Part shown: in pieces, positions 346 to 61,473 of the stretch
How positions within the stretch are numbered: position 1 is the first letter of the stretch
Layout of the letters: the number at the start of each line of letters is the position of its first letter
From: Bdellovibrionales bacterium
GTDB lineage: Bacteria > Bdellovibrionota > Bdellovibrionia > Bdellovibrionales > JAUICD01
NCBI GenBank assembly: GCA_965203275.1
Contig: OZ241865.1
Coordinates: forward strand, 1 to 64,000
Length of the DNA: 64,000 nt
Direction: 5' to 3'
Made by a program: the position numbers and the translations under genes
The notes under the pieces: model-generated
Databases searched by the model: none
Told to the model about the DNA's origin: nothing
Seen by the model: only the letters and a program-made list of their open reading frames with translations

Positions 346-957
346 TTATATTAAAAGAGACTGTAGGTGTGAGGTGAGTTTTTGTTGAACTTCTTTAAAG
401 TCAACATCCTGCATAAAATCTGTTAAACCAGTCATAATATCTTGAGAGAAGCCACAAGGGTTAAAACGACCATAGTCTAAAAATTCATTTTTAAAATTAA
501 AAGCCAATCCATGATACGAAATCCATTTTTTGACACCAATGCCAATGGATGCTATTTTTTTATGAACTTGCTTGCCAACCCAAACACCTGTTGCTCCTGA
601 CTTACAATAAGACGATATATTATAATCTTTGAGTGTATTGACCACTGTTACTTCTAGATTTCTTAAAATTTTATGTGTATCATAATTTCTTTTTCTTAAA
701 TCTAAAATAGGGTAGACGATGATTTGTCCAGGTCCATGAAAAGTAACTCCACCGCCTCTTTGAACTTTTACAATCTCTCCATCCCATTGTTGAATATCCT
801 TTACAGTAGCAGAACGTCCTATAGTTAAAACAGGTGGATGAGAGCAAAGGATCAGAGTTTCATTGGATTTTTGATAATAGACTTTTTCTAGCATTTCTAT
901 TTGAAAGTCTAGAGCTTTTTTGTAAGGGATTAAACCTAGATCTATTAGTTCAAGCAT
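346..957 (-). CDS. lipB: Octanoyltransferase LipB
   Basis: HPPVLTIG, RGGGVTFHGPGQ, KIASIG, HGLAFN, PCG motifs. Confidence 0.95.
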   Translation of the reverse strand: MLELIDLGLIPYKKALDFQIEMLEKVYYQKSNETLILCSHPPVLTIGRSATVKDIQQWDGEIVKVQRGGGVTFHGPGQIIVYPILDLRKRNYDTHKILRNLEVTVVNTLKDYNISSYCKSGATGVWVGKQVHKKIASIGIGVKKWISYHGLAFNFKNEFLDYGRFNPCGFSQDIMTGLTDFMQDVDFKEVQQKLTSHLQSLLI

Positions 958-968
958 ATTCGGTTCTT

Positions 969-2010
969 TTCACTCAAAATGAGCCACACCTCTGGTGTGT
1001 TTTTGGGCATTGCTCTGACAGCTTACGCTGTCCAAAAAGAGCAATGCCGCAAAAAACTGCTCATTTTGAGTAGGGAGGATCTCCTCATTTCTTTACACCA
1101 TGTTAAGGAAAAAGTTCAGTTTTAGGGCCTGTTGCCGGGTTGCCGGATCCCGGATCCCGGATCCCGGATAAAATCAAATTTAATTTTAAGTATTTTTACA
1201 CAGTTTGTATAAAAAAGCACCTAATTTGGTTCACTAAAAGTGGTCTAGCCTCTGTTTCCCTAAAATTGAACTAGCCGTTTGGTTCACTCAAAATGCATCA
1301 TGCCTCTGGCATGTTTTTGGGCAATGACCGCAATGGCTTTCGCCATTGGCAAAATGGTCATTACCTCAAAAATCTATGCATTTTGAGTAGAGGAGGATCT
1401 CTTCGTTTTTTTACTCCATGTTAAGGAAAACATCCTTCTAATGGGTAGCCCGACGGCTGTCGCCGTCGATCAAAGGCTAACTGCCTCATTTGATTTGCAC
1501 TAAAAGTAAACTAGCCTCTGGTCACTTTTGGGTTGCCAGCCGAAGGCTATCGCCTTCTTATCTTTTTCACTAAAAATAAACCAGCCTCTGGCTGTTTTTG
1601 GGCATTGCTCTGACAGCTATCGCTGTCCAAAAAGAGCAATGCCTCAAAAATCCGTTTATTTTTAGTAGGGAAGGATCTCTTCGTCCTTTAACATGATGTT
1701 AAGGAAAAATTCCTTCATCACCAATGGCAACCTAGAAAGCTTGACCACTTTTAGTAGGGAGGATCTCTTCGTTTTTTAACTCCATGTTAAGGAGTTTGTT
1801 TCACTTGAAATGAACCACACCTCTGGTGTGTTTTTTGGTGTTGCCTGCAAAGGCTTACGCCTTTGACAAAATAGGCAACACCTAAAAAATCTGTTCATTT
1901 CAAGTAGGGAAGGATCCCTTCGTTTTTTAACTCCATGTTAAGGAAAAAGTTCAGTTTTAGGGCCTGTTGCCGGGATGCTAGATCCCGGATCCCAGATAAA
2001 CATCGTGTTG
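969..2010 (+). repeat. Cluster of ~140-bp branched-hairpin elements with heptamer tails
   Basis: Full units start TTCAC at 969, 1283, 1566 and 1800 and end ATGTTAAGGAA. Nested fragments lie between them. CCGGATC arrays at ~1133-1170 and ~1968-1997. Confidence 0.95.
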
Positions 2011-2059
2011 GAAAAAAGTAGGAATATATATTCCTAATAATGCAGTTATTAAAGCAAGT

Positions 2060-2452
2060 TTATTTACAGATTTGGTGAACTTCTTCTTCTGATAAGCCAG
2101 TAATTTCACAAACTTCTTGAATGGTCATGTTTTTTTCAATAAGTTTAAGAGCCACCTCTTGCCGACCTTCTTGTCGACCCTCGGCGATACCTTCCTGCCG
2201 ACCCTCAGCGATACCTTCCTGCCGACCTTTAGCTAAACCTTCTAATAAACCTCTTTTAACCATTGGTATATATGCACCCATCTTACCTCCTTCTACTTTG
2301 ACTAATTTACTATCCTTATCTGAAGCTAATTTCAAACATCTATTGAAAAAATCCAAATCTATTTTTGGATTTCTACGATATAAATGATATTGAACTGCTG
2401 ATAATATTATATCTTGATTATTCACTCCATGCAACCCTTTAAACAATTTCAC
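2060..2452 (-). pseudogene. 5'-truncated Rpn/YhgA-like (PD-(D/E)XK 'transposase') gene retaining the C-terminal region; probable small ORF 2281-2060
   Basis: EGRQEG repeats plus terminal HTH (IQEVCEITGLSEEEV). The GTG 'start' is the repeat end. GAAGGAGGTAAG-ATG at 2281. Confidence 0.75.
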
Positions 2453-3260
2453 TAAAAGTAAACCAACCTCTGGTTGCTTTTGGGCATTGCTCTGACAGCT
2501 ATACGCTGTCTAAAAAGAGCAATGCCTCAAAAGTCCGTTTACTTTTAGTAGGCAGGATCCTTTCCTTTTTTAACAAGATGTTAAGGAAACAAGATGTTCC
2601 TTTTTTTGTTTTTTTATTCTCTTTTAGATTCTGCGTAACTTTCAAAAAAGCAGTAATTAGGGAGGAGGATAGGGCAGTGGGAGACTGAATGAGTTGGTTC
2701 ACTAAAAGTGGTCTTTTTCACTAAAAATAAACCAGCCGTCATTTTCACTAAAAGTAAACTAGCCTCTGGCTACTTTTGGGCAATGACCGCAAAGGCTTTC
2801 GCCTTTGACAAAATGGTCATTGCCTCAAAAGCCTGACCACTTTTAGTAGGAAGGATCCCTTCGTCCCTTAACTCCATGTTAAGGAAAAAGTTCTTTCTTA
2901 CACCTTTTGGCTCACGCCGTCGATCAAAGGCTGGCTACCTCAAAAGTCCGTTTACTTTTAGTAGAAAGGATCTCCTTGTCTCTTAACACGATGTTAAGGA
3001 AACAAGAAGTTCATTTCTCTGTATTTTCTAAAAGATGGAAAAAAGGTATTTAAAAATTGGAAATCCAGTGATTCTAGCTAGTTTGTTTCACTCAAAATAA
3101 ATCATGCCTCTGTTTCCCTAAAATTGAACTAGCCTCTGGTTGCTTTTGGGCGATGACTACGACGACTGTCGTCGTCGATAAAATGGTCATCGCCTCAAAA
3201 GTCCGTTTACTTTTAGTAAGGAGGATCCCTTCTTTTTTTAATACCATGTTAGGGAAACAA
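2448..3260 (+). repeat. Hairpin-element cluster
   Basis: Units at 2448, 2744 and ~3113 plus stacked left-end fragments. Confidence 0.93.
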
Positions 3261-3323
3261 GGTGTTCGTTTCTCTGGATTTCTTTGAAAAGGTAGAGAAT
3301 TTGGGTTTAAAAATTAGATTTTC

Positions 3324-3736
3324 AGTGATTTCAGCTATTTAATACTGTGACTTTTGTATAAAAGTTACAGTATTAAGTGTTTGTAATTGTTAGACTTTTT
3401 TAGGTCGACTTTAGAAATTTCTAATTTTTCGTCTAACACAATTCTTATCGTTTATTATGACATAAAACTTTATATTTTTGTTAAAAAAAATCAAAAAAAG
3501 TGACATTTTGTATCAAAAAGAATCACTTTTTTTAATTTTTGTATCATCTTGAAACACTTTACTAATCTTAAAGACATAAGATCAGAAAAATAAGTAGCGA
3601 TTTTTAATTCTTGTTTTATAACTTTTGTTTTGTTTGATTTTTCAAAACAATTTTCTTGCAAAAAACTGTCTGTTTTTTACTCTTTCAAATTGTGACTTTT
3701 ATACAAAAGTTACAGTGCTAAGTCCTTGAAATCACT
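3324..3736. promoter_or_regulatory. AT-rich segment bounded by ~46-bp imperfect inverted repeats, upstream of pilin 1
   Basis: AGTGATTTCA..ACTGTGACTTTTGTATAAAAGTTACA versus TGTGACTTTTATACAAAAGTTACAGT..TGAAATCACT; near-identical copy at 8082-8493. Confidence 0.6.
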
Positions 3737-3754
3737 AGGTCGTTTAGGATGGGT

Positions 3755-3965
3755 TCATTAAAAGTGGCCAGAAGCTGGTTTACTTTTAGTGAAAAGGAAA
3801 TCAATAGAAGGAAATCTTTTTCCTTAACATGTGGTTAAGAGAGAAGGATATCCTTCCTACTCAAAATAAATAATTTTTCTAGGCAGTTAGCCTTTCATCG
3901 ACGGCGGTAGCCGTCAGGCTAACTGCCAGAAAACATGCCAGAGGCATGATTTATTTTGAGTGAAT
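3755..3965 (-). repeat. Hairpin element (reverse) ending just before the pilin RBS
   Basis: TTCCTTAACAT...TTTTGAGTGAA, then GGAGG and ATG at 3984. Confidence 0.9.
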
Positions 3966-3983
3966 TAAACCGTGGAGGTTATT

Positions 3984-4724
3984 ATGGAACGTTTAATTAA
4001 GAATCAAAAAGGTTTTAGTTTAATTGAATTAATGGTCGTCGTGGCTATTATTGGAATTCTGGCCGCTGTGGCTATTCCAAACTATCAACAGTTTCAACGT
4101 AGAGCTATCCAAACAGAAGCAAAAGCTAAGTTAGGTGCTTTATATGTAGCTGAAACTACATTTATAAATGAGTGGGGATCCGGTACTACGAATCTTGAAT
4201 TATTAGGTTATGATCAAAAGGGAGATGCAAGTTATTATATTGTAGGATGGCATGCTAGTGATAATGTAGAAGGTGGTACAATAAAACCGAATAACTCAAC
4301 AACAGCTAGACCTACGGGTTATAGAGGTCCACTTCCAAGTGCAACCACTACAGTGAATACTCATACTTTTCAACCAGGAAGTCATAACAAGATGGCTTAT
4401 TCTGCACCTACAAATCTTCAAATAGCTGGAGCTTTGGAAAGAGTTGGAAGTTGTGGAAACAGTTCTGGTCATACTGGATGTTGTGCTGCCAATACAACAT
4501 ATCCAACTTGTAGTGATGCGAGTCCTCTTCCTTCTACTTGTACAGGCGGAAGTTGTACTTCTGCAAAGCCAGTTGCAAATACAGGCATTAGAAACGTAAG
4601 TTTCACTATAGGGGCAAGTGGAGTGATTGATGGTTCTACTGAGGTAGGAACAGCCGGAGCAAATTTAGATCGATGGACTATAACTCAAGAGAAGACTTTA
4701 GTAAACTCACAGACAGGACTTTAA
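3984..4724 (+). CDS. Type IV pilin (PilA-like) 1
   Basis: KG|FSLIELMVVVAIIGILAAVAIP prepilin motif; GGAGG RBS before ATG 3984; Cys-rich insert. Confidence 0.93.
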   Translation: MERLIKNQKGFSLIELMVVVAIIGILAAVAIPNYQQFQRRAIQTEAKAKLGALYVAETTFINEWGSGTTNLELLGYDQKGDASYYIVGWHASDNVEGGTIKPNNSTTARPTGYRGPLPSATTTVNTHTFQPGSHNKMAYSAPTNLQIAGALERVGSCGNSSGHTGCCAANTTYPTCSDASPLPSTCTGGSCTSAKPVANTGIRNVSFTIGASGVIDGSTEVGTAGANLDRWTITQEKTLVNSQTGL

Positions 4725-6729: not shown

Positions 6730-7089
6730 TTTGCGAATGCAGATATCTTTTTTGAGAATATTTTATTTATAGGTATTAGAGGATTTTGATTTTTAAATTT
6801 CTTCAAAACTTGTAGTAAGACAAATTTTTGTAAATTTTTATCAATAAAGTCTTGATATAGAAAGCTATACATTATTGAGTAAAATGATGATGAAAAATGA
6901 TGTAAAACATGAGAAGCCTAAAAATAAAGGGAAGGGGAAGATGAAATTTCAGATGAATAAATTAATGATTTCCCCTAAATTAAAAAGCTTACAGTAAAAA
7001 AAGCTCACATTCTAGTGGCACAAAATCTTATTACGCTTATAACCTACTGAAATCTCACAGCTTTATTTTTTCAGGCTATCAAACTCAGG
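6712..7089. mobile_element. Non-autonomous IS1634-like remnant (clear right end, possible left end)
   Basis: 7010-7089 matches the right end of the IS at 51680-51756 (...CAGGCTATCAAACTCAGG). CTTGAATTTGACAG at 6712 is an 11/14 inverted match. Confidence 0.6.
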
Positions 7090-7543
7090 ACTTACTTTTT
7101 AGCTTTAAAATATGATCTTGAGATAAACCTGTCACCTGAGAGATTAAAGCAATATTCATATTCTCTTTTAACATATTGTGTGCAACTAATTCCATACCCT
7201 TTTCCATACCTTCTTGCCGACCCTCAGCGATACCTTCTTGTCGACCCTCAGCGATACCTTCTTGCCGACCCTCAGCGATACCCTCTTGTCGACCCTCGGC
7301 GATACCTTCTTGCCGACCTTTAGCTAAACCTTCTAATAAGCCTCTTTTAACCATTGGTATATATGCACCCATCTTACCTCCTTCTACTTTGACTAATTTA
7401 CTATCCTTATCTGAAGCTAATTTCAAACATCTATTGAAAAAATCCAAATCTATTTTTGGATTTCTACGATATAAATGATATTGAACTGCTGATAATATTA
7501 TATCTTGATTATTCACTCCATGCAACCCTTTAAACAATTTCAC
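7085..7543 (-). pseudogene. Second truncated Rpn-family gene; probable small ORF 7372-7085
   Basis: 5' part essentially identical to the 2060-2452 copy, more EGIAEGRQ repeats, different terminal HTH. Confidence 0.75.
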
Positions 7544-8015
7544 TAAAAGTAAACCAACCTCTGTTTCCCTAAAATTGAACTAGCCGTTTGGTTCACTCAA
7601 AATGCATCATGCCTCTGGCATGTTTTTGGGCAATGACCGCAATGGCTTTCGCCATTGGCAAAATGGTCATTACCTCAAAAATCTATGCATTTTGAGTAGA
7701 GGAGGATCTCTTCGTTTTTTGACCACATGTTAAGGAAAATATCCTTTTAATGGCACTTAGCCCAACGGCTTATCGCCGTTGATCAAAGGCTAACTGCCTA
7801 GAAAATCCATTTATTTTGAGTAGAGAGGATCCTTTTTTCTCTTAACACCATATTAAGGAAAAAGTTCATTTTAAACCCGCCAAGGACTCAGGAGGAAATT
7901 TTTTAGATGAAAAAATTCATTACGATCAATCTTCTAGAAACTGACTGCCGGGTTGCCGGATGCCGGATCCCGGATCCCAAATTCCGGATCCCGGATGAAA
8001 ATCATGTTAGGGGAA
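7539..8015 (+). repeat. Hairpin-element cluster with linker and heptamer tail
   Basis: Stacked left ends at 7539 and 7565, full unit at 7592, CCGGATC array at ~7947-7996. Confidence 0.93.
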
Positions 8016-15804: not shown

Positions 15805-16335
15805 TTCACTAAAAATAAACCAGCCTCTGGCTGTTTTTGGGCAATCAGCCCGACGGCTCTCGCCGTCGATCAAAGGCTGATTGCCTCAAAAATCCGTTTA
15901 TTTTTAGTAGAGAGGATATCCTTGCCTCTTGACATCATGTTAAGGAAAAAGTTCTTTCTTACACCTTTTGGCTCTCGCCGTCGATCAAAGGCTGATTGCC
16001 TCATTTGATTTGCACTAAAAGTAAACTAGCCTCTGGCTACTTTTGGACATTGCTCTGACAGCTTACGCTGTCCAAAAAGAGCAATGTCGTTGGTTCACTA
16101 AAAGTGGTCTGACCTCTGGTCACTTTCTGGCGATGACCACGATGGCTTTCGCCATCGATAAAATGGTCATCGCCTAGAAAGCTTGACCACTTTTAGTAGA
16201 AAGGATCCTTTCCTCTTTTAACATGATGTTAAGGAAAAAGAGTTCTTTCTGATGGCGGGATCCCGGATCCCGGATCCCGGATGCCAGATCCCGGATGCCG
16301 GATCCCAGATCCCGGATCCCAGATCCCAGACCCTA
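15805..16335 (+). repeat. Hairpin-element cluster with long heptamer array
   Basis: Units at 15805, ~16010 and ~16094; array at 16255-16330. Confidence 0.93.
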
Positions 16336-23035: not shown

Positions 23036-23600
23036 TTCACTAAAAGTGGTCTGTTTCACTAAAAGTGGTCTGTTTCACTAAAAGTGGTCTAGCCTCTGGC
23101 TACTTTTGGGCAATGACCGCAAAGGCTTTCGCCTTTGACAAAATGGTCATTGCCTCAAAAGCCTGACCACTTTTAGTAGGGAGGATCCTTTCGTCTCTTG
23201 ACCACATGTTAAGGAAAAAGTCCTTTTGTTTCACTAAAAGTGGTCTGACCTCTGGTCACTTTCTGGTTGCCAGCCCGACGGCTATCGCCGTCGATCAAAG
23301 GCTAACTGCCTAGAAAATTCATTTATTTTGAGTAGGGAGGATCTCCTTGCTTCTGACACCATGTTAAGGAAATAAGATATGCTTCTAATTTTTTGAGAGC
23401 AAATGGGTTGCAATGAAGGAACTTTTTCCTTAACATCGTGTAAAGAGACGAGAGGATCCTCATTACTAAAAGTGGTCAGGCTTTCTAGGTTGCCAGCATT
23501 TAAGAAGGCGGTAGCCTTCGGCTGGCAACCAGAAAGTGACCAGAGGTCAGACCACTTTTAGTGAACCAACGGCTAGTTTACTTTTAGTGAACCAGAGTGA
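23036..23600. repeat. Hairpin-element cluster: tail-to-tail doublet with 3x19-bp stacked left ends
   Basis: TTCACTAAAAGTGGTCTG(T) repeated at 23036, 23055 and 23074; linker 23371-23425; reverse unit to 23565. Confidence 0.93.
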
Positions 23601-26959: not shown

Positions 26960-28996
26960 ATGATGAAAAAATATTTTTTATGTTTATTTTTTGTAGTCAG
27001 TGTAATCAATGTTGGTGAGACATTTGCCTTACCTCAAGAACATTGCCCTGACGTTTTACTTACTGTTGCGGATAAAGATCATCAAAGGTTCAGAGAGCTT
27101 TCACCAGAAGCTCAAAACATGCTCCAAATAGCTTCTCTCATTGCTCAAGTGACACATAGCAATAACTCTATACCAGTAAAAGTGAATATTTATCATGTCT
27201 TACTTGCAGCTTTGACAAAAATCCAATCAGCCAATGAGGCCATCTATCGTTTAAATTTAGAGGATTTAGCTGGTGATGGTGAAAATAAAAGTGCATTATT
27301 TGTTGTTTTAAAAAACCTAGGAATTTTAAGGGATTTTCAAAGATTTCTTTTAGAAGAAATAGGTTTAAATAGTAGCAACCCAGAGCCTTTTGAATTCCAG
27401 TCAGATGGATTACTTCTCCTCAATCTGAATGAAGCTGTATTGACATCGATAAAAATTGACTATGATGAAGAATTTGATCGCTTATGGAATTTAGCTATTC
27501 GTGAGAAAGAAGAAGAGATCAGAAACATACATCGTCAAAATGGTCGGATTTTACAACTTAGTAATACAGAAAATGCAGTCAGGTACATAAAAATTAGGGA
27601 TAAGACAAAACGATATGATAAGACTTTTCGGATTCCCACTTTCCCAGAACATTTCTTTTTAGCGTCCTTACATGTTGATTTGCCTATTTTTCATTTTCTA
27701 TCAGAGTATTTTGATGGTAAGACACCGGCTCAGATTAAAGGTACACTCTATCCATTGATAGATCAAGCTAAGCGATCTTTTTGGAATTTTTCAAAAAAGA
27801 AAAAACGCAATTCTTACTCTAAAGAACAAAAAGCAGAGGGCGTTGCTCTACTGATAGAAAAAATAAATAAAGGGATAGGAATTACTCAAGCTGTTGTAGA
27901 AATAGCAGAGAAAATAGGGATTCATGCTAGCACTCTGAATAATCTGTTTTATGAATATAAAACAGAGGTCATTGATCTAGTTATTAATAGAGAGCAAGAG
28001 ATAGAATCTGAAAAAGCTATTGCAGAGGTAGCAGAGCAGAAAAATATTGATCCTGAGATTTTGCAGGATTGGATTGACAAATATAAGGAGCCATCTAAGC
28101 ACACTGAAAAAAATATTTACACTAAAAAAAGAAAAGCAGAGACTATTGATCTAATGATGGAAAAAATAAATAAAGGGATAAGAATTACTCAAGCCATTGC
28201 AGAAGTAGCAGAGCAAACAAAGATTCCTACCTCTACTTTGCATAATTGGTTTTATAAATATAAAAGAGAGTCCATTGCTCTAGTGATGAACAGAGAGCAA
28301 AAGATAGGGTCTGAAAAAGCTATTGCAGAAGTCGCAGTGCAGAAGAATATCTATCCTGAGATTTTGCAAGATTGGGTTGACAAATATAAGGAGAATAAAT
28401 CTAAACCTAAACAAAATTTTTACTTAAAAAAAAGAAAAGCAAAGGCCATTGCTCTAATGATGGAAAAAGTAAATAAAGGGATAAGAATTACTCAAGCTAG
28501 TGCAGAAATAGCAGAGCAAACAGGAATTCCTGCCATCACTCTGAGTAATTGGTTTTATGAATATAAAAGAGAGTCCATTGATCTAGTTATGAACAGAGAG
28601 CAAGAGATAGGGTCTGAAAAAGCTATTGCAGAAGTAGCAGAGGAGCAGAACATCGATCCTGAGATTTTGCAGGATTGGATTGATAAATATAAGGAGCCAT
28701 CTAAGCACACTGAAAAAAATACTTACAATAAAAAAAGAAAAACAGAGGCCATTGCTTCACTTATTAAAAGAAAGAAAGAAATAGAAGGATCGTTTCATAA
28801 AGTTATTGCAGAAGTAGCAGAGCAAACAGGAATTCCTGCTAATACTCTGTGGAATTGGCTTAAGAAATATAAAAAAGAGGTCATTGCTCTAGTGATGAAC
28901 AGAGAGCAAGAGATAGAATCTGAAAAAGCCATTTTAGAAGTAGCAGAGGAGCAGAACATCGATCCTGAGATTTTGCAGGATTGGATTGACAAATAG
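26960..28996 (+). CDS. Secreted protein with Clp-N-like N-terminus and tandem transposase-type HTH repeats
   Basis: Signal peptide; three ~100-aa repeats 'Y.K..KAE.I.L...IAEVAEQTGIP..TL.NW...I.PEILQDW'. Confidence 0.75.
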   Translation: MMKKYFLCLFFVVSVINVGETFALPQEHCPDVLLTVADKDHQRFRELSPEAQNMLQIASLIAQVTHSNNSIPVKVNIYHVLLAALTKIQSANEAIYRLNLEDLAGDGENKSALFVVLKNLGILRDFQRFLLEEIGLNSSNPEPFEFQSDGLLLLNLNEAVLTSIKIDYDEEFDRLWNLAIREKEEEIRNIHRQNGRILQLSNTENAVRYIKIRDKTKRYDKTFRIPTFPEHFFLASLHVDLPIFHFLSEYFDGKTPAQIKGTLYPLIDQAKRSFWNFSKKKKRNSYSKEQKAEGVALLIEKINKGIGITQAVVEIAEKIGIHASTLNNLFYEYKTEVIDLVINREQEIESEKAIAEVAEQKNIDPEILQDWIDKYKEPSKHTEKNIYTKKRKAETIDLMMEKINKGIRITQAIAEVAEQTKIPTSTLHNWFYKYKRESIALVMNREQKIGSEKAIAEVAVQKNIYPEILQDWVDKYKENKSKPKQNFYLKKRKAKAIALMMEKVNKGIRITQASAEIAEQTGIPAITLSNWFYEYKRESIDLVMNREQEIGSEKAIAEVAEEQNIDPEILQDWIDKYKEPSKHTEKNTYNKKRKTEAIASLIKRKKEIEGSFHKVIAEVAEQTGIPANTLWNWLKKYKKEVIALVMNREQEIESEKAILEVAEEQNIDPEILQDWIDK

Positions 28997-35839: not shown

Positions 35840-36525
35840 TGTTTATCTGGGATCTGGGATCCGGGATCAGGCAATCTGGCATCCCGGGATCCGGCATCCG
35901 GGATCCGGGATCCGGGATCCGGCATCCGGCATCCGGCATCCGGGATCAGGCAGTCAGGCAGGGATGAAGCGAATAGCTTGTTTCCTTAACATTTCACTCA
36001 AAATGCATCATGCCTTTCTTTCACTCAAAATGAGCCACACCTCTGGTGTGTTTTTTGATGTTGCCTGCAAAGGCTTTCGCCTTTGACAAAATGGTCATTG
36101 TCTCATTTGATTTGCACTAAAAGTAAACTGACCTCTGGTCACTTTCTGGCGATGACCACGACGGCTCTCGCCGTCGATAAAATGGTCATCGCCTAGAAAG
36201 CCTGTTCACTTTGAGTAAGAAGGAACCCTTCGTTTCTTAACACGATATTAAGGAAACAGAGTTTCATTTGTAGACCCGCCTGCTCCTTAAAAACATTTTA
36301 GAAGCATATCTTGTTTCCTTAACATGCTGTAAAGGAATAAAAGGATCCTCTCTACTTAAAATGAACAAGCTTTTGAGGTAGCCAGCCTTTGATCGACGGC
36401 GTGAGCCGTCGGGCTGGCTACCCAAAAGTGGCCAGAGGCCAGTTCATTTTGAGTGAAATGTTAAGGAAAAAGTTCAGTTTTAGGGCCTGTTGCCGGATGC
36501 CGGATCCCGGATAAATACCATGTTA
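35840..36525. repeat. Hairpin-element cluster with the longest heptamer array and a tail-to-tail doublet
   Basis: Array at 35845-35950; linker at 36258-36315. Confidence 0.93.
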
Positions 36526-39519: not shown

Positions 39520-40400
39520 TATCCGGGATCTGGGATCCGGGATCCGGGATCCGGGATCCGGGATCTGGGATCTAGTTCCAGAGTATTGATTGTAATGAAT
39601 TTTTTCATCTAAAAAATTTCCTCCTGAGCCCTGGCGGGTTTAAAAAGAACTTTTTCCTTAACATTTCACTCAAAATGAGCCACACCTCTGTTTCCCTAAA
39701 ATTGAACTAGCCTCTGGCTACTTTTGGACAGTTAGCCCGACGGCTCTCGCCGTCGATCAAAGGCTAACTGTCTCAAAAGCCTGTTCAATTTTAGGAAGGA
39801 GGATGTCCTCATTTCTTAACACAATGTTAAGGAAAAAGATTTCCTTCTGACATTTGCTCTGACAGCTATCGCTGTCTAAAAAGAGCAATGCCTCAAAAAT
39901 CTGCTCATTTTGAGTAGAGCGGATCTCCTTGCTTCTGACACCATGTTAAGGAAACAAGATATGCCTCTAAAATCTTTTTGGGAAGCAAGCGGGTTGCAAT
40001 AAATGAACTTTTTCCTTAACACCGTGTAAAGAGAGGAGAGGATCCTCCCTACTCAAAGTGAACAGGCTTTTGAGGCAATGACCATTTTGCCAATGGCGAA
40101 AGCCATTGCGGTCATTGCCCAAAAGTGACCAGAGGTCAGTTCACTTTGAGTGAAACAGAGGCTGGTTTACTTTTAGTGAAACAACCCGGGATCTGGCAAC
40201 CGGCATCAGGTCCTAAAACTGAACTGTTTCCTTAACATGGAGTTAAGGGACGAAGGGATCCTCCTTACTAAAAGTAAACGGACTTTTGAGGTAGCCAGCC
40301 TTTGATCGACGGCGGTAGCCGTCGGGCTGGCTACCCAAAAGTGACCAGAGGTCAGTTTACTTTTAGGGAAACAGCCCACTTTTAGTGAAACTTAGTGAAC
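39520..40400. repeat. Hairpin-element cluster
   Basis: Heptamer array 39520-39572, unit at 39692, doublet linker 39955-40012, reverse units to 40371. Confidence 0.93.
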
Positions 40401-60664: not shown

Positions 60665-61473
60665 TCCGGAATCCGGCACCCCGCACCCCAGCATCCGAAG
60701 GAAATCTTGTTTCCTTAACATCATGTAAAGAGACAAGAGGATCCTTCTTACTCAAAGTAAACGGACTTTTGAGACGATGACCATTTTGTCAAAGGCGAAA
60801 GCCTTTGCGGTCATCGTCCAAAAGTGACCAGAGGCCAGTTCACTTTGAGTGAACCAGTGGCATTGCTCTTTTAATATAATCTTAAAGGCATTTTGTTCCC
60901 TTAACATCCTGTTAAGAAATGAAGGGATTCTCTCTACTAAAAGTGGTCAAGCTTTCTAGGTTGCCAGCATTTGAGAAGGCGAATAGCCTTCGGCTGGCAA
61001 CCAGAAAGTGACCAGAGGTCAGACCACTTTTAGTGAGCCAACAGCGTAAGCTGTCAGAGCAATGTCCAAAAGCAACCAGAGGTTGGTTTACTTTTAGTGC
61101 AAATCAAATGAGGCAATCAGCCTTTGATCGACGGCGTGAGCCGTCGGGCTAACTGCCATTAGAAGGACATTTTCCTTAACATGTAGTCAAAAAACGAAGA
61201 TATCCTCCCTACTCAAAATGCATAGATTTTTGAGGCAATGACCATTTTGCCAATGGCGAAAGCCATTGCGGTCATCGTCCAAAAGTGACCAGAGGCCAGT
61301 TCACTTTGAGTGAGCTAAAACATCTTGTTTCCTTAACATCATGTTAAGAAATGAGGACATCCTCCTTCCTAAAATTGAACAAGCTTTTGAGGCAATCAGC
61401 CTTTGATCGACGGCGATAGCCGTCGGGCTGATTGCCCAAAAGTAGCCAGAGGCTAGTTCAATTTTAGGGAAAC
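60665..61473 (-). repeat. Hairpin-element cluster (reverse)
   Basis: Four near-full reverse units and fragments. Confidence 0.93.

Follow-up and report, generated by a model that had tools for sequence, protein, structure and literature searches.

The IS200/IS605 and IS91/ISCR elements have folded single-strand ends, make no target duplication and keep one sharp end; they insert exactly beside a fixed target of 4-5 bases with no deletion, and one-ended events of the IS91 type carry neighbouring DNA. Eukaryotic SINE/LINE copying transduces flanks and leaves one fixed and one variable end. The REP/BIME/REPIN repeats with their RAYT (TnpA-REP) Y1 transposases, as presented in the available text of PMC3116915 and PMC3333891, occur as hundreds of intergenic, non-coding hairpin copies in mosaic clusters, insert into or beside older copies, form inverted doublets at set spacing, have variable flanks and are proposed to pass through a single-strand intermediate. 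In Acinetobacter baylyi, SPDIR (short-patch double illegitimate recombination) integrates single strands via microhomology with loss of target bases and without a transposase, and is favoured when RecJ is missing (10.1101/2023.11.22.568220, 10.1101/2024.07.02.601687, in the portions available). The first of these portions reports that loss of RecJ/ExoX raises SPDIR, that SPDIR is very rare and that its patches are no longer than about 100 bp. Group II intron-type reverse transcriptases including G2L4 join ends by microhomology and carry out snap-back synthesis (PMC11761039, in the available text).

Here we describe a 141-position repeat of a Bdellovibrionales bacterium that works like the REPIN/BIME repeats, with all the traits listed above for them, but fails the tests of membership in that group. 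REP, as far as the available text goes, is a short palindrome behind a 5' GTAG, whereas here a 141-base three-way junction has covarying stems. In place of a conserved 5' GTAG/GTGG, an internal GTAG at 103-106 varies, and in place of a repeat-flanked RAYT/Y1 gene there were 0 PF01797 matches in the genome. Compared with what the same sources describe, the element appears to have no constant cut dinucleotide, loses target, carries a leader of 9-12 bases and nests as a rule (580/1,395) rather than in a minority of cases. The route that we propose would resemble SPDIR in its single strands, microhomology at the leader end, target loss, lack of a transposase and missing RecJ, with tail-end homology not above control; SPDIR, in the portions available, is a rare mutation with arbitrary donors up to about 100 bp, whereas here one folded 141-base unit occupies 6.4% of the genome.

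The IS200/IS605 and IS91/ISCR elements and their non-autonomous forms share single-strand folded ends, no target duplication, one sharp end and flank carriage, but here both joints vary and a Y1 gene was not found in the genome; where a non-autonomous IS200/IS605 element inserts exactly and without loss, 21/25 of our empty/filled pairs lose target and gain donor flank. The terminal inverted repeats and fixed target-site duplication of MITEs of DDE transposases were not found, nor were the recombinase and target-covarying loops of an IS110/IS1111 bridge-RNA element (0 PF02371; mutual information <=0.18). Flank transduction and one fixed plus one variable end are shared with group II intron, SINE and LINE copying, and microhomology joining and snap-back synthesis with the group II intron-type enzymes; unlike these, the element comes with no intron domains, Rfam match or target duplication, and no reverse transcriptase was found in its genome. 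We found no description of the 141-base element or of its junction pattern in open-licence papers.

Results

An intergenic repeat with a conserved fold

The window, that is, the whole 64-kb stretch analysed, is the first 64 kb of the source genome (G000), a single 2.57-Mb contig with 35% GC that is ~90% complete. Its ordinary genes (pilins, type II secretion, gyrase, glycolysis) are separated by the 141-position repeat, which is present in 93 pieces, 34 of them full. Genome-wide, a score-filtered, two-strand jump-profile parse called 702 full copies besides 1,503 fragments (693 5' pieces, 610 3' pieces and 200 internal pieces), for a total of 164,581 bases or 6.4% of the genome. Only 4/702 full copies of this intergenic repeat lie mostly inside an ORF of at least 200 aa. 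Identical cores with different flanks occur, and 128/601 full copies have an identical twin.

Rfam gave no match at gathering level in the window and, for 900-4000, weak chance-level matches, none convincing. Six viral pattern matches were attributed to chance and a metagenome search gave 0 matches; a genome-wide database scan gave at least 30 loci, on one Bdellovibrionales record among the matches listed. A covariance model of the repeat had matches in 4/121 genomes of the order: the source genome, G001 of the same genus (2.94 Mb; sampled as 800 kb in 40 stretches picked for elements or four-helix-bundle genes), G004 and one marginal case. All 13 matches of G004 are on 64 kb of three small contigs (C1, C4, C11) with 0 on 292 kb of its other contigs, and the proteins of the element-bearing contigs are closer to those of the source genome (median 56% vs 49%), which suggests that these contigs are mis-binned. 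Replication-linked GC skew is nearly absent from the source genome and its genes are evenly divided between strands, as expected from frequent rearrangement among repeats; no replication-strand bias of the repeats was seen, the skew signal being too weak for a fair test.

Positions 4-104 are predicted to fold into a three-way junction with the following helices:

P1, positions 4-16 with 92-104
P2, positions 17-21 with 25-29, with a 3-base loop
P3, positions 30-46 with 71-88, with a bulge at 82
P4, positions 47-53 with 58-64

Compensatory changes were found at 30/41 predicted pairs in a 39-copy alignment, the four core helices are paired at 96-99%, and the P1 arms, 80 bases apart, are complementary in full copies (91% vs 59%). 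The last hairpin (P6) is weak and the hairpin before it inconsistent; many copies have the internal GTAG at 103-106 (variants GGAA and GTAA), and the hairpin that follows has no consistent pairing. The repeat ends are unrelated motifs without terminal inverted repeats. On the minus strand, the P4 loop reads G...A in 477/510 distinct copies (277 GNRA and 161 GNYA, so that GNRA makes up 277 of 438 G..A tetraloops), and the core stems are almost purely Watson-Crick with few wobble pairs. G...A loops stabilise DNA mini-hairpins. From the loop on that strand and the scarcity of wobble pairs in the core, we infer that the folded species is the minus strand. In P3b, A-C outnumbers G-T (103 vs 27), and the G-T pairs of the weak P6 stem favour the plus strand.

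Repeat clusters in the window

A first-pass annotation of the window had proposed that elements nest inside each other at a few recurring structural positions, and each of the junctions that it listed was recovered by the jump-profile parse. Heads of consensus 1-25 end at the P2 loop at 1254, 7563, 11123, 39690, 44975, 54670 and 56529 (11 such junctions in the window altogether). Heads 1-17/18 end at the P1/P2 junction at 2714, 23053, 23072 and 44702, and junctions past position 84, after the P3 bulge, have a common 7-base linker at 1488, 16003 and 36105; a further junction of this kind, with the same linker, lies near 61109 on the minus strand. The joins read as P6-loop insertions at 35992/35993 and 39664/39665 are present, as are two more at 36457/36458 and 56887/56888, but in each case the 9-base piece is opposite in strand to the new unit, and the targeting of a P6 host loop was not supported by the analysis below. 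The main loci are:

969..1108, plus strand: full 141-position core upstream of the cluster (jump-profile parse)
1109..1169, plus strand: element 3' tail into a 7-base repeat tract of the four-helix-bundle cassette (sequence)
1186..1227, minus strand: end of a four-helix-bundle gene (TIGR02436/PF05635), its final 13 codons plus stop, truncated by the element start at 1230
1230..1254, plus strand: orphan head, consensus 1-25, ending just beyond the P2 loop
1256..1282, plus strand: second head (1-21) and 6-base linker at the P2 loop
1283..1426, plus strand: full core, part of the block 1249-1410 identical to 7558-7719
1427..1446, plus strand: 3' tail carried along, with its join to a piece of resumed host
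1447..1495, plus strand: internal fragment (43-84) and fixed linker of the putative "P3-bulge" founder junction
1496..1560, plus strand: host 5' part (1-66), probably a recombinant head (jump-profile parse)
1561..1722, plus strand: complete guest, with leader 1561-1565, core 1566-1704 and tail 1705-1722
1723..1792, plus strand: resumed host 3' part, about consensus 69-141
1800..1943, plus strand: full core in tandem behind a 7-base linker
2698..2999, plus strand: cluster made up of a 1-17 head (P1/P2 site), a 1-21 head, the full core 2744-2884, a tail and a resumed piece 51-141
7539..7858, plus strand: the 1249-1410 block again, after another head, followed by a piece that resumes at about 36-39
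15805..16234, plus strand: cluster with the shared 2885 tail junction and a position-84 junction
35984..36466, no single strand: cluster in which two opposite-strand P6 joins accompany a position-84 junction and a tail-to-tail doublet
39656..39951, plus strand: P6 join followed by a genuine P2-loop nest with host halves that agree at 6/6 P1 pairs

The host at 1496-1792, described in the first-pass annotation as split by a complete guest and then resuming, has exactly this arrangement in the parse. Its halves agree in the inner P3 stem, yet at just 3/6 diagnostic P1 pairs, whereas at G000:2304589 another copy with both of these junctions agrees at 6/6; the window copy is therefore probably a later recombinant.

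The 7-base tract at 1109..1169 also flanks the copies of the four-helix-bundle gene. This 101-aa gene (TIGR02436/PF05635) has about 11 near-identical copies plus fragments in the source genome (32 tblastn matches; for example C1:2111804-2112109), with 7-base repeat tracts on both sides in the same orientation and a hairpin that covers the ribosome-binding site. The gene is interrupted by the element at several sites, and in 20/21 joins the two are antisense to each other. The gene is multi-copy also in G001, G004, G021, G025 and G026, and the cassette at first appeared co-distributed with the element in family f1; as a fixed partner it was rejected, since in G004 0/18 matches have the element within 300 bases, the element-bearing contigs of that genome may be mis-binned and the orientation in G001 is mixed. 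The protein may act as a trans factor. At L015 of G004, three copies of another intergenic repeat surround a four-helix-bundle gene; this repeat has a short motif in common with the flanking repeats of G000 and G001. No description of the cassette was found in open-licence papers.

Short tandem repeats at 2150-2230 and 7085-7543 of the window lie within ORFs of a large paralogous family (up to 27 copies), which we take to resemble Rpn/PD-(D/E)XK nucleases. A 678-aa ORF at 26960-28996 has several transposase-type helix-turn-helix matches, the best at residues 413-641.

Nesting and its preferred site

In the source genome, 580/1,395 element starts sit in an existing copy. A truncated same-strand host lies within 14 bases of 481 starts, an opposite-strand piece precedes 99 and a complete end precedes 90. 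Breakpoints are far from uniform along the consensus, with 340/481 same-strand junctions at 8 of 126 scorable positions. A truncated 5' host followed by a new start was found 426 times; the guest is truncated in 172, full with nothing after it in 93, full and followed by another start in 34 and full and followed by an internal piece in 127. Of these 127, 82 have the host piece back near register, between -10 and +15 of the break and mostly 5-15 bases beyond it. The P1 arms of resumed hosts are complementary in 312/426 cells (73%; random 57.8 +/- 2.6%) and perfectly so in 31/71 hosts vs 8.3 expected, whereas 45 out-of-register cases are at or near chance. This difference argues that insertion into host copies is real and that many cases, 1496-1792 included, were scrambled by later recombination.

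The further proposal that the element targets unpaired parts of its own fold held for the P2 loop and was not supported as a general rule. Among distinct junction types, loops are enriched overall (30/80 vs 0.246 expected, p=0.007), but not outside positions 20-27 (14/55 types vs 0.229 expected, p=0.37; with a 1-base margin, 23/55 vs 0.347 expected, p=0.17), and 41/80 types fall in positions 13-27. The P2 loop accounts for 58 resumed hosts with at least 13 different 3' junctions in the source genome, and for 17/19 nested junctions of the G001 sample (at 24-25), which have linkers of their own; by these junctions it is a recurrent target, in the second genome also. Position 25 (201 junctions in register) ranks first of 276 sites on both strands in likeness to the leader consensus of non-nested starts, a score that is partly circular as free leaders include carried ones. 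Four about equally leader-like sites in or beside stems have 0 junctions, as does the minus-strand site 66-67, which is unpaired and leader-like.

At the other sites the picture differs. The P1/P2 junction, taken earlier for an unpaired target, is predicted to be mostly paired, and 45/45 of the alleles that use it lack A at position 15 (background 219/601; events not independent), so that sequence decides there. The P3-bulge join, at position 84, lies 2 bases beyond the bulge and has one linker in 23/24 cases; sites 48, 63, 84 and 110 have essentially one linker each and look like single amplified founders. At P6, 88/99 opposite-strand junctions are at one position without a linker. Of 92 contexts of 30 bases, 78 are different, and the rest of a host follows near register in 1/92. 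The join, being exact and opposite-strand with hardly any host remainder, does not demonstrate nesting. Self-templated fold-back of the element's own tail was rejected as its source (3.9 vs 4.2 +/- 0.24 shared bases, n=49).

Rare haplotypes, often recombinant ones, are over-represented among heads (25/145 vs 28/581, p=3e-6), an excess that agrees with re-targeting and may alternatively stem from decay. Heads are not slippage duplicates of the guest, because head and guest alleles are unlinked (identical in 3/150, 5.3 +/- 2.1 expected).

Anatomy of an insertion

Paralogous empty sites were found for 25/677 full copies, many of them within other repeats and not independent. Target bases are lost in 21/25 empty/filled pairs, with 1 flush and 3 overlapping, and most pairs gain non-target bases on both sides. 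The target-site duplications that the first-pass annotation suggested looking for were absent as a fixed feature (shared 5-mers 43% vs 38 +/- 1.7%); instead, insertions delete about 5-15 bases. They carry 9-12 bases of the previous left flank (the leader) and a 3' tail. Of 672 non-nested starts, 48 share at least 9 bases with the leader of a nested junction while the wider context is unrelated, where column shuffles give 7.1 +/- 2.6; 33 of the 48 share 9-12 bases, and several shared leaders reproduce element-internal sequence at unique sites. Judged by sequence, the bases added at insertion are those of the donor's earlier site.

The tail end is looser. Inherited tails are mostly 13-27 bases long, the upper values being inflated by mismatches, and one tail lineage joins many different resume positions. 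Homology at the tail joint is not above control (3.45 vs 3.38 +/- 0.07, n=135). A tail that guides by matching the upstream target was rejected (z 0.1-0.5, n=47), matching of the tail to the replaced host segment was not above control, and no internal programmable loops covary with the flanks (flank-to-core mutual information <=0.18).

In G001, short inverted additions start at the same P2 loop, the two top classes having 34 and 13 copies. They are consistent with snap-back synthesis and would be a sign of free 3' ends there. Inverted copies of the P2 arm at the loop, sometimes two or three repeats, can be seen at L037:12352-12518, L047:11640-11811 and L067:19470-20000.

Composite blocks

Composite blocks are copied or recombined as units, as the first-pass annotation had it: identical blocks stand behind different heads and identical cores have different flanks. 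The block 1249-1410 equals 7558-7719 at 162/162 bases and begins in the conserved P2 loop behind different heads. The likeness noted between the junctions at 2881 and 15942 extends over 2876-2940 and 15937-16001 (61/65), and their common 28-base tail junction has 12 occurrences in the genome. Identical blocks start and stop inside conserved motifs. Tail-to-tail doublets (81 pairs, 68 of them 50-69 bases apart) mix arms at a short shared 8-base motif; they are built on a second hairpin repeat with an AGCAAGC core (window 36115-36457 and 23230-23565). G001 has a tandem array of eight 235-base units with a full element (L073:3261-5045) and five tandem copies of positions 86-141 (L067:8882-9161).

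Enzyme and repair genes

Searches covered selected protein families, in a genome that is ~90% complete and may lack plasmids or phages. The source genome had 0 matches to Y1 (PF01797), and neither it nor G001 matched IS110 (PF02371). G001 has one Y1 gene with hairpin ends of its own and no element in its 3.4-kb locus. No reverse transcriptase was found in the source genome by Pfam (RVT_1), tblastn, phmmer or motif scan; G001 has 3 RVT_1 matches, with no element ends at its group II intron enzymes, and no RVT_1 or Y1 gene is bounded by the element. A Y2 search matched 0/5 genomes, its control likewise matching nowhere.

TnpB was rejected, the sole PF07282 match being a 1,325-aa Cas12-like ORF (G000:C1:238802-242779; also G001 L026) that has the element 120 bases behind it. 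Two more long ORFs, at 1990534 and 2274014, are presumably Cas9-like by their N-termini. An Xer/dif-like reading of the last hairpin, compared with what we take to be the dif-like motif, was also rejected, since the spacing is unfit and G004 gave no tyrosine recombinase match.

Among 21 related genomes, recJ was not found in G000, G001 and 7 others (9/21 in all); these 7 are without the repeat. MutS and exonuclease VII are present, and SbcD is absent from G000 and present in G001.

Discussion

We favour a reading in which the repeat is selfish and non-autonomous and enters new sites as a copy in the form of a folded single strand, most likely minus-strand DNA. What travels would be the three-way-junction core together with two unpaired arms from its previous site, a leader of about 9-12 bases of left flank and a tail of about 13-25 bases of right flank. 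The leader arm would pair with a few matching bases in single-stranded target DNA, which would fix the start, and the tail end would be joined more loosely, 5-15 bases further on, so that target is lost and not duplicated. Completion would fall to host replication or repair enzymes, as in SPDIR. The P2 loop would recur because it is the best match to the usual leader and is exposed in the folded host. After landing at position x, a copy would have host sequence for its leader, and this would match x in about 1,400 other copies; founders could thus re-target their own site, and by this re-targeting, whether through single-strand DNA or RNA, few sites would recur. Units running from an outer head to the first tail, together with recombination in conserved motifs, would then spread composites and leave orphan heads.

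We hold this account, in which folded minus-strand DNA anneals by its carried flank and host enzymes build it in, as a tentative one, somewhat short of an even chance. In its favour are the target loss in 21/25 pairs, leader carry-over above shuffles, the one tail lineage with its many resume positions, the rank of position 25 as the top leader site against 0 junctions at four similar sites in or beside stems, the excess of rare heads and the lack of linkage between head and guest alleles. The G...A loop and the nearly pure Watson-Crick core speak for the minus strand, and the inverted additions of G001 for free 3' ends there. The missing recJ of G000 and G001 counts towards an SPDIR-like route, but recJ is missing also in 7 repeat-free genomes of 21. 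In an SPDIR-type joint test, the leader end fits and target loss is seen, whereas tail-end homology is not above control and SPDIR relies on microhomology annealing. The unpaired, leader-like minus-strand site 66-67 goes unused, and the exact P6 join (88/99, no linker) fits a nicking enzyme equally well. The P6 G-T pairs favour the plus strand and the GNRA majority (277/438) suits RNA, both of which speak against minus-strand DNA. Junction anatomy, carry-over of flanks, true nesting, copying of blocks, recurrence at P2 and the conserved fold are observations, whereas we infer the free single strand, its polarity and chemistry, the re-targeting by a carried leader and the enzymes.

The GNRA majority, which is stronger still in G001, leads to an RNA route, in which a group II intron-type enzyme acting in trans would reverse-transcribe a processed minus-strand transcript at the 3' end of a target, in the manner of a SINE, with stalls and template jumps producing the stacked heads and snap-back additions. 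One end fixed with microhomology and the other loose, 41/80 junction types in positions 13-27 and the 3 RVT_1 matches of G001 all fit it, and the minus strand is sense in 16/23 co-directional gene contexts (not significant). Group II intron-type enzymes do perform snap-back synthesis and microhomology joining, as stated in the available text of PMC11761039. Yet no reverse transcriptase was found in the source genome although 128/601 full copies have an identical twin, the core has very few G-U pairs and the element ends are absent at the G001 group II intron enzymes, and we consider the route unlikely.

In-place template switching we rate as equally improbable. Forks would stall at the hairpins, the nascent strand would jump to another copy via short homology and return, and gene conversion among about 1,400 copies would spread mosaics with no free intermediate. 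The composite blocks speak for it: they start and stop inside conserved motifs, identical cores have different flanks, tail-to-tail doublets mix arms at an 8-base motif (81 pairs, 68 at 50-69 bases), and G001 adds snap-back additions and tandem arrays. By itself, though, switching leaves unexplained why copied units at unique non-repeat sites begin shortly ahead of one and the same start motif and reach 13-25 bases past the last hairpin, and why P1 arms that lie 80 bases apart stay complementary in full copies (91% vs 59%).

A structure-recognising nickase of RAYT/HUH type, now lost or unassembled, that would cut the fold at its loops and carry out strand transfer as with REP/BIME/REPIN, is a little less probable again. 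Both of the strongest sites lie at 3-base hairpin loops, the P6 join is exact and the stems are protected, but loops are not enriched outside P2. According to the available text, RAYT cuts at a variable distance from its hairpin and builds mosaics (PMC3333891), and REPINs insert into or beside REPINs (PMC3116915). At many P2 and P1/P2 joins a C followed by T can be read, and under the C^T cut of E. coli TnpA-REP the P2, P1/P2, 63, 76 and 84 joins are allowed, with microhomology blurring the cut; founder junctions 48, 81 and 110, P6 and several empty/filled pairs do not fit. A Y1 gene was not found in the source genome, and that of G001 has its own hairpin ends with no element nearby.

That the mosaics are assembly chimeras among near-identical repeats is very improbable: no compared contig spans a nested array, and contigs break inside repeats without a clean empty allele, but fixed non-consensus linkers stand at junctions of many loci, host halves are complementary above chance, a second genome has the same P2 nesting with its own linkers, and contigs from other runs (one from another study) contain junction linkers and pass, with no differences, from unique flanks into element starts.

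Copying by a folded single strand, the reading we prefer, would have a wider form, which we put forward as doubtful: selfish DNA that has no transposase, either of its own or supplied in trans, and that exploits host replication and repair as a folded single strand resistant to nucleases, with ~10 bases of its last site guiding the next insertion, so that target choice is inherited. It is still debated how REP-like repeats multiply into the hundreds and become mosaic, and the common explanation requires RAYT; here a larger and more structured repeat takes up 6.4% of a genome, and its junctions do not resemble those of known transposases. As the element lands in itself, the empty target is known, and the genome thus holds hundreds of natural insertion records. 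If the wider form is true, the nest hot spots would be heritable targeting lineages, and if carried flanks set the next target, this would be heritable, sequence-programmed insertion without a guide RNA or a dedicated enzyme.
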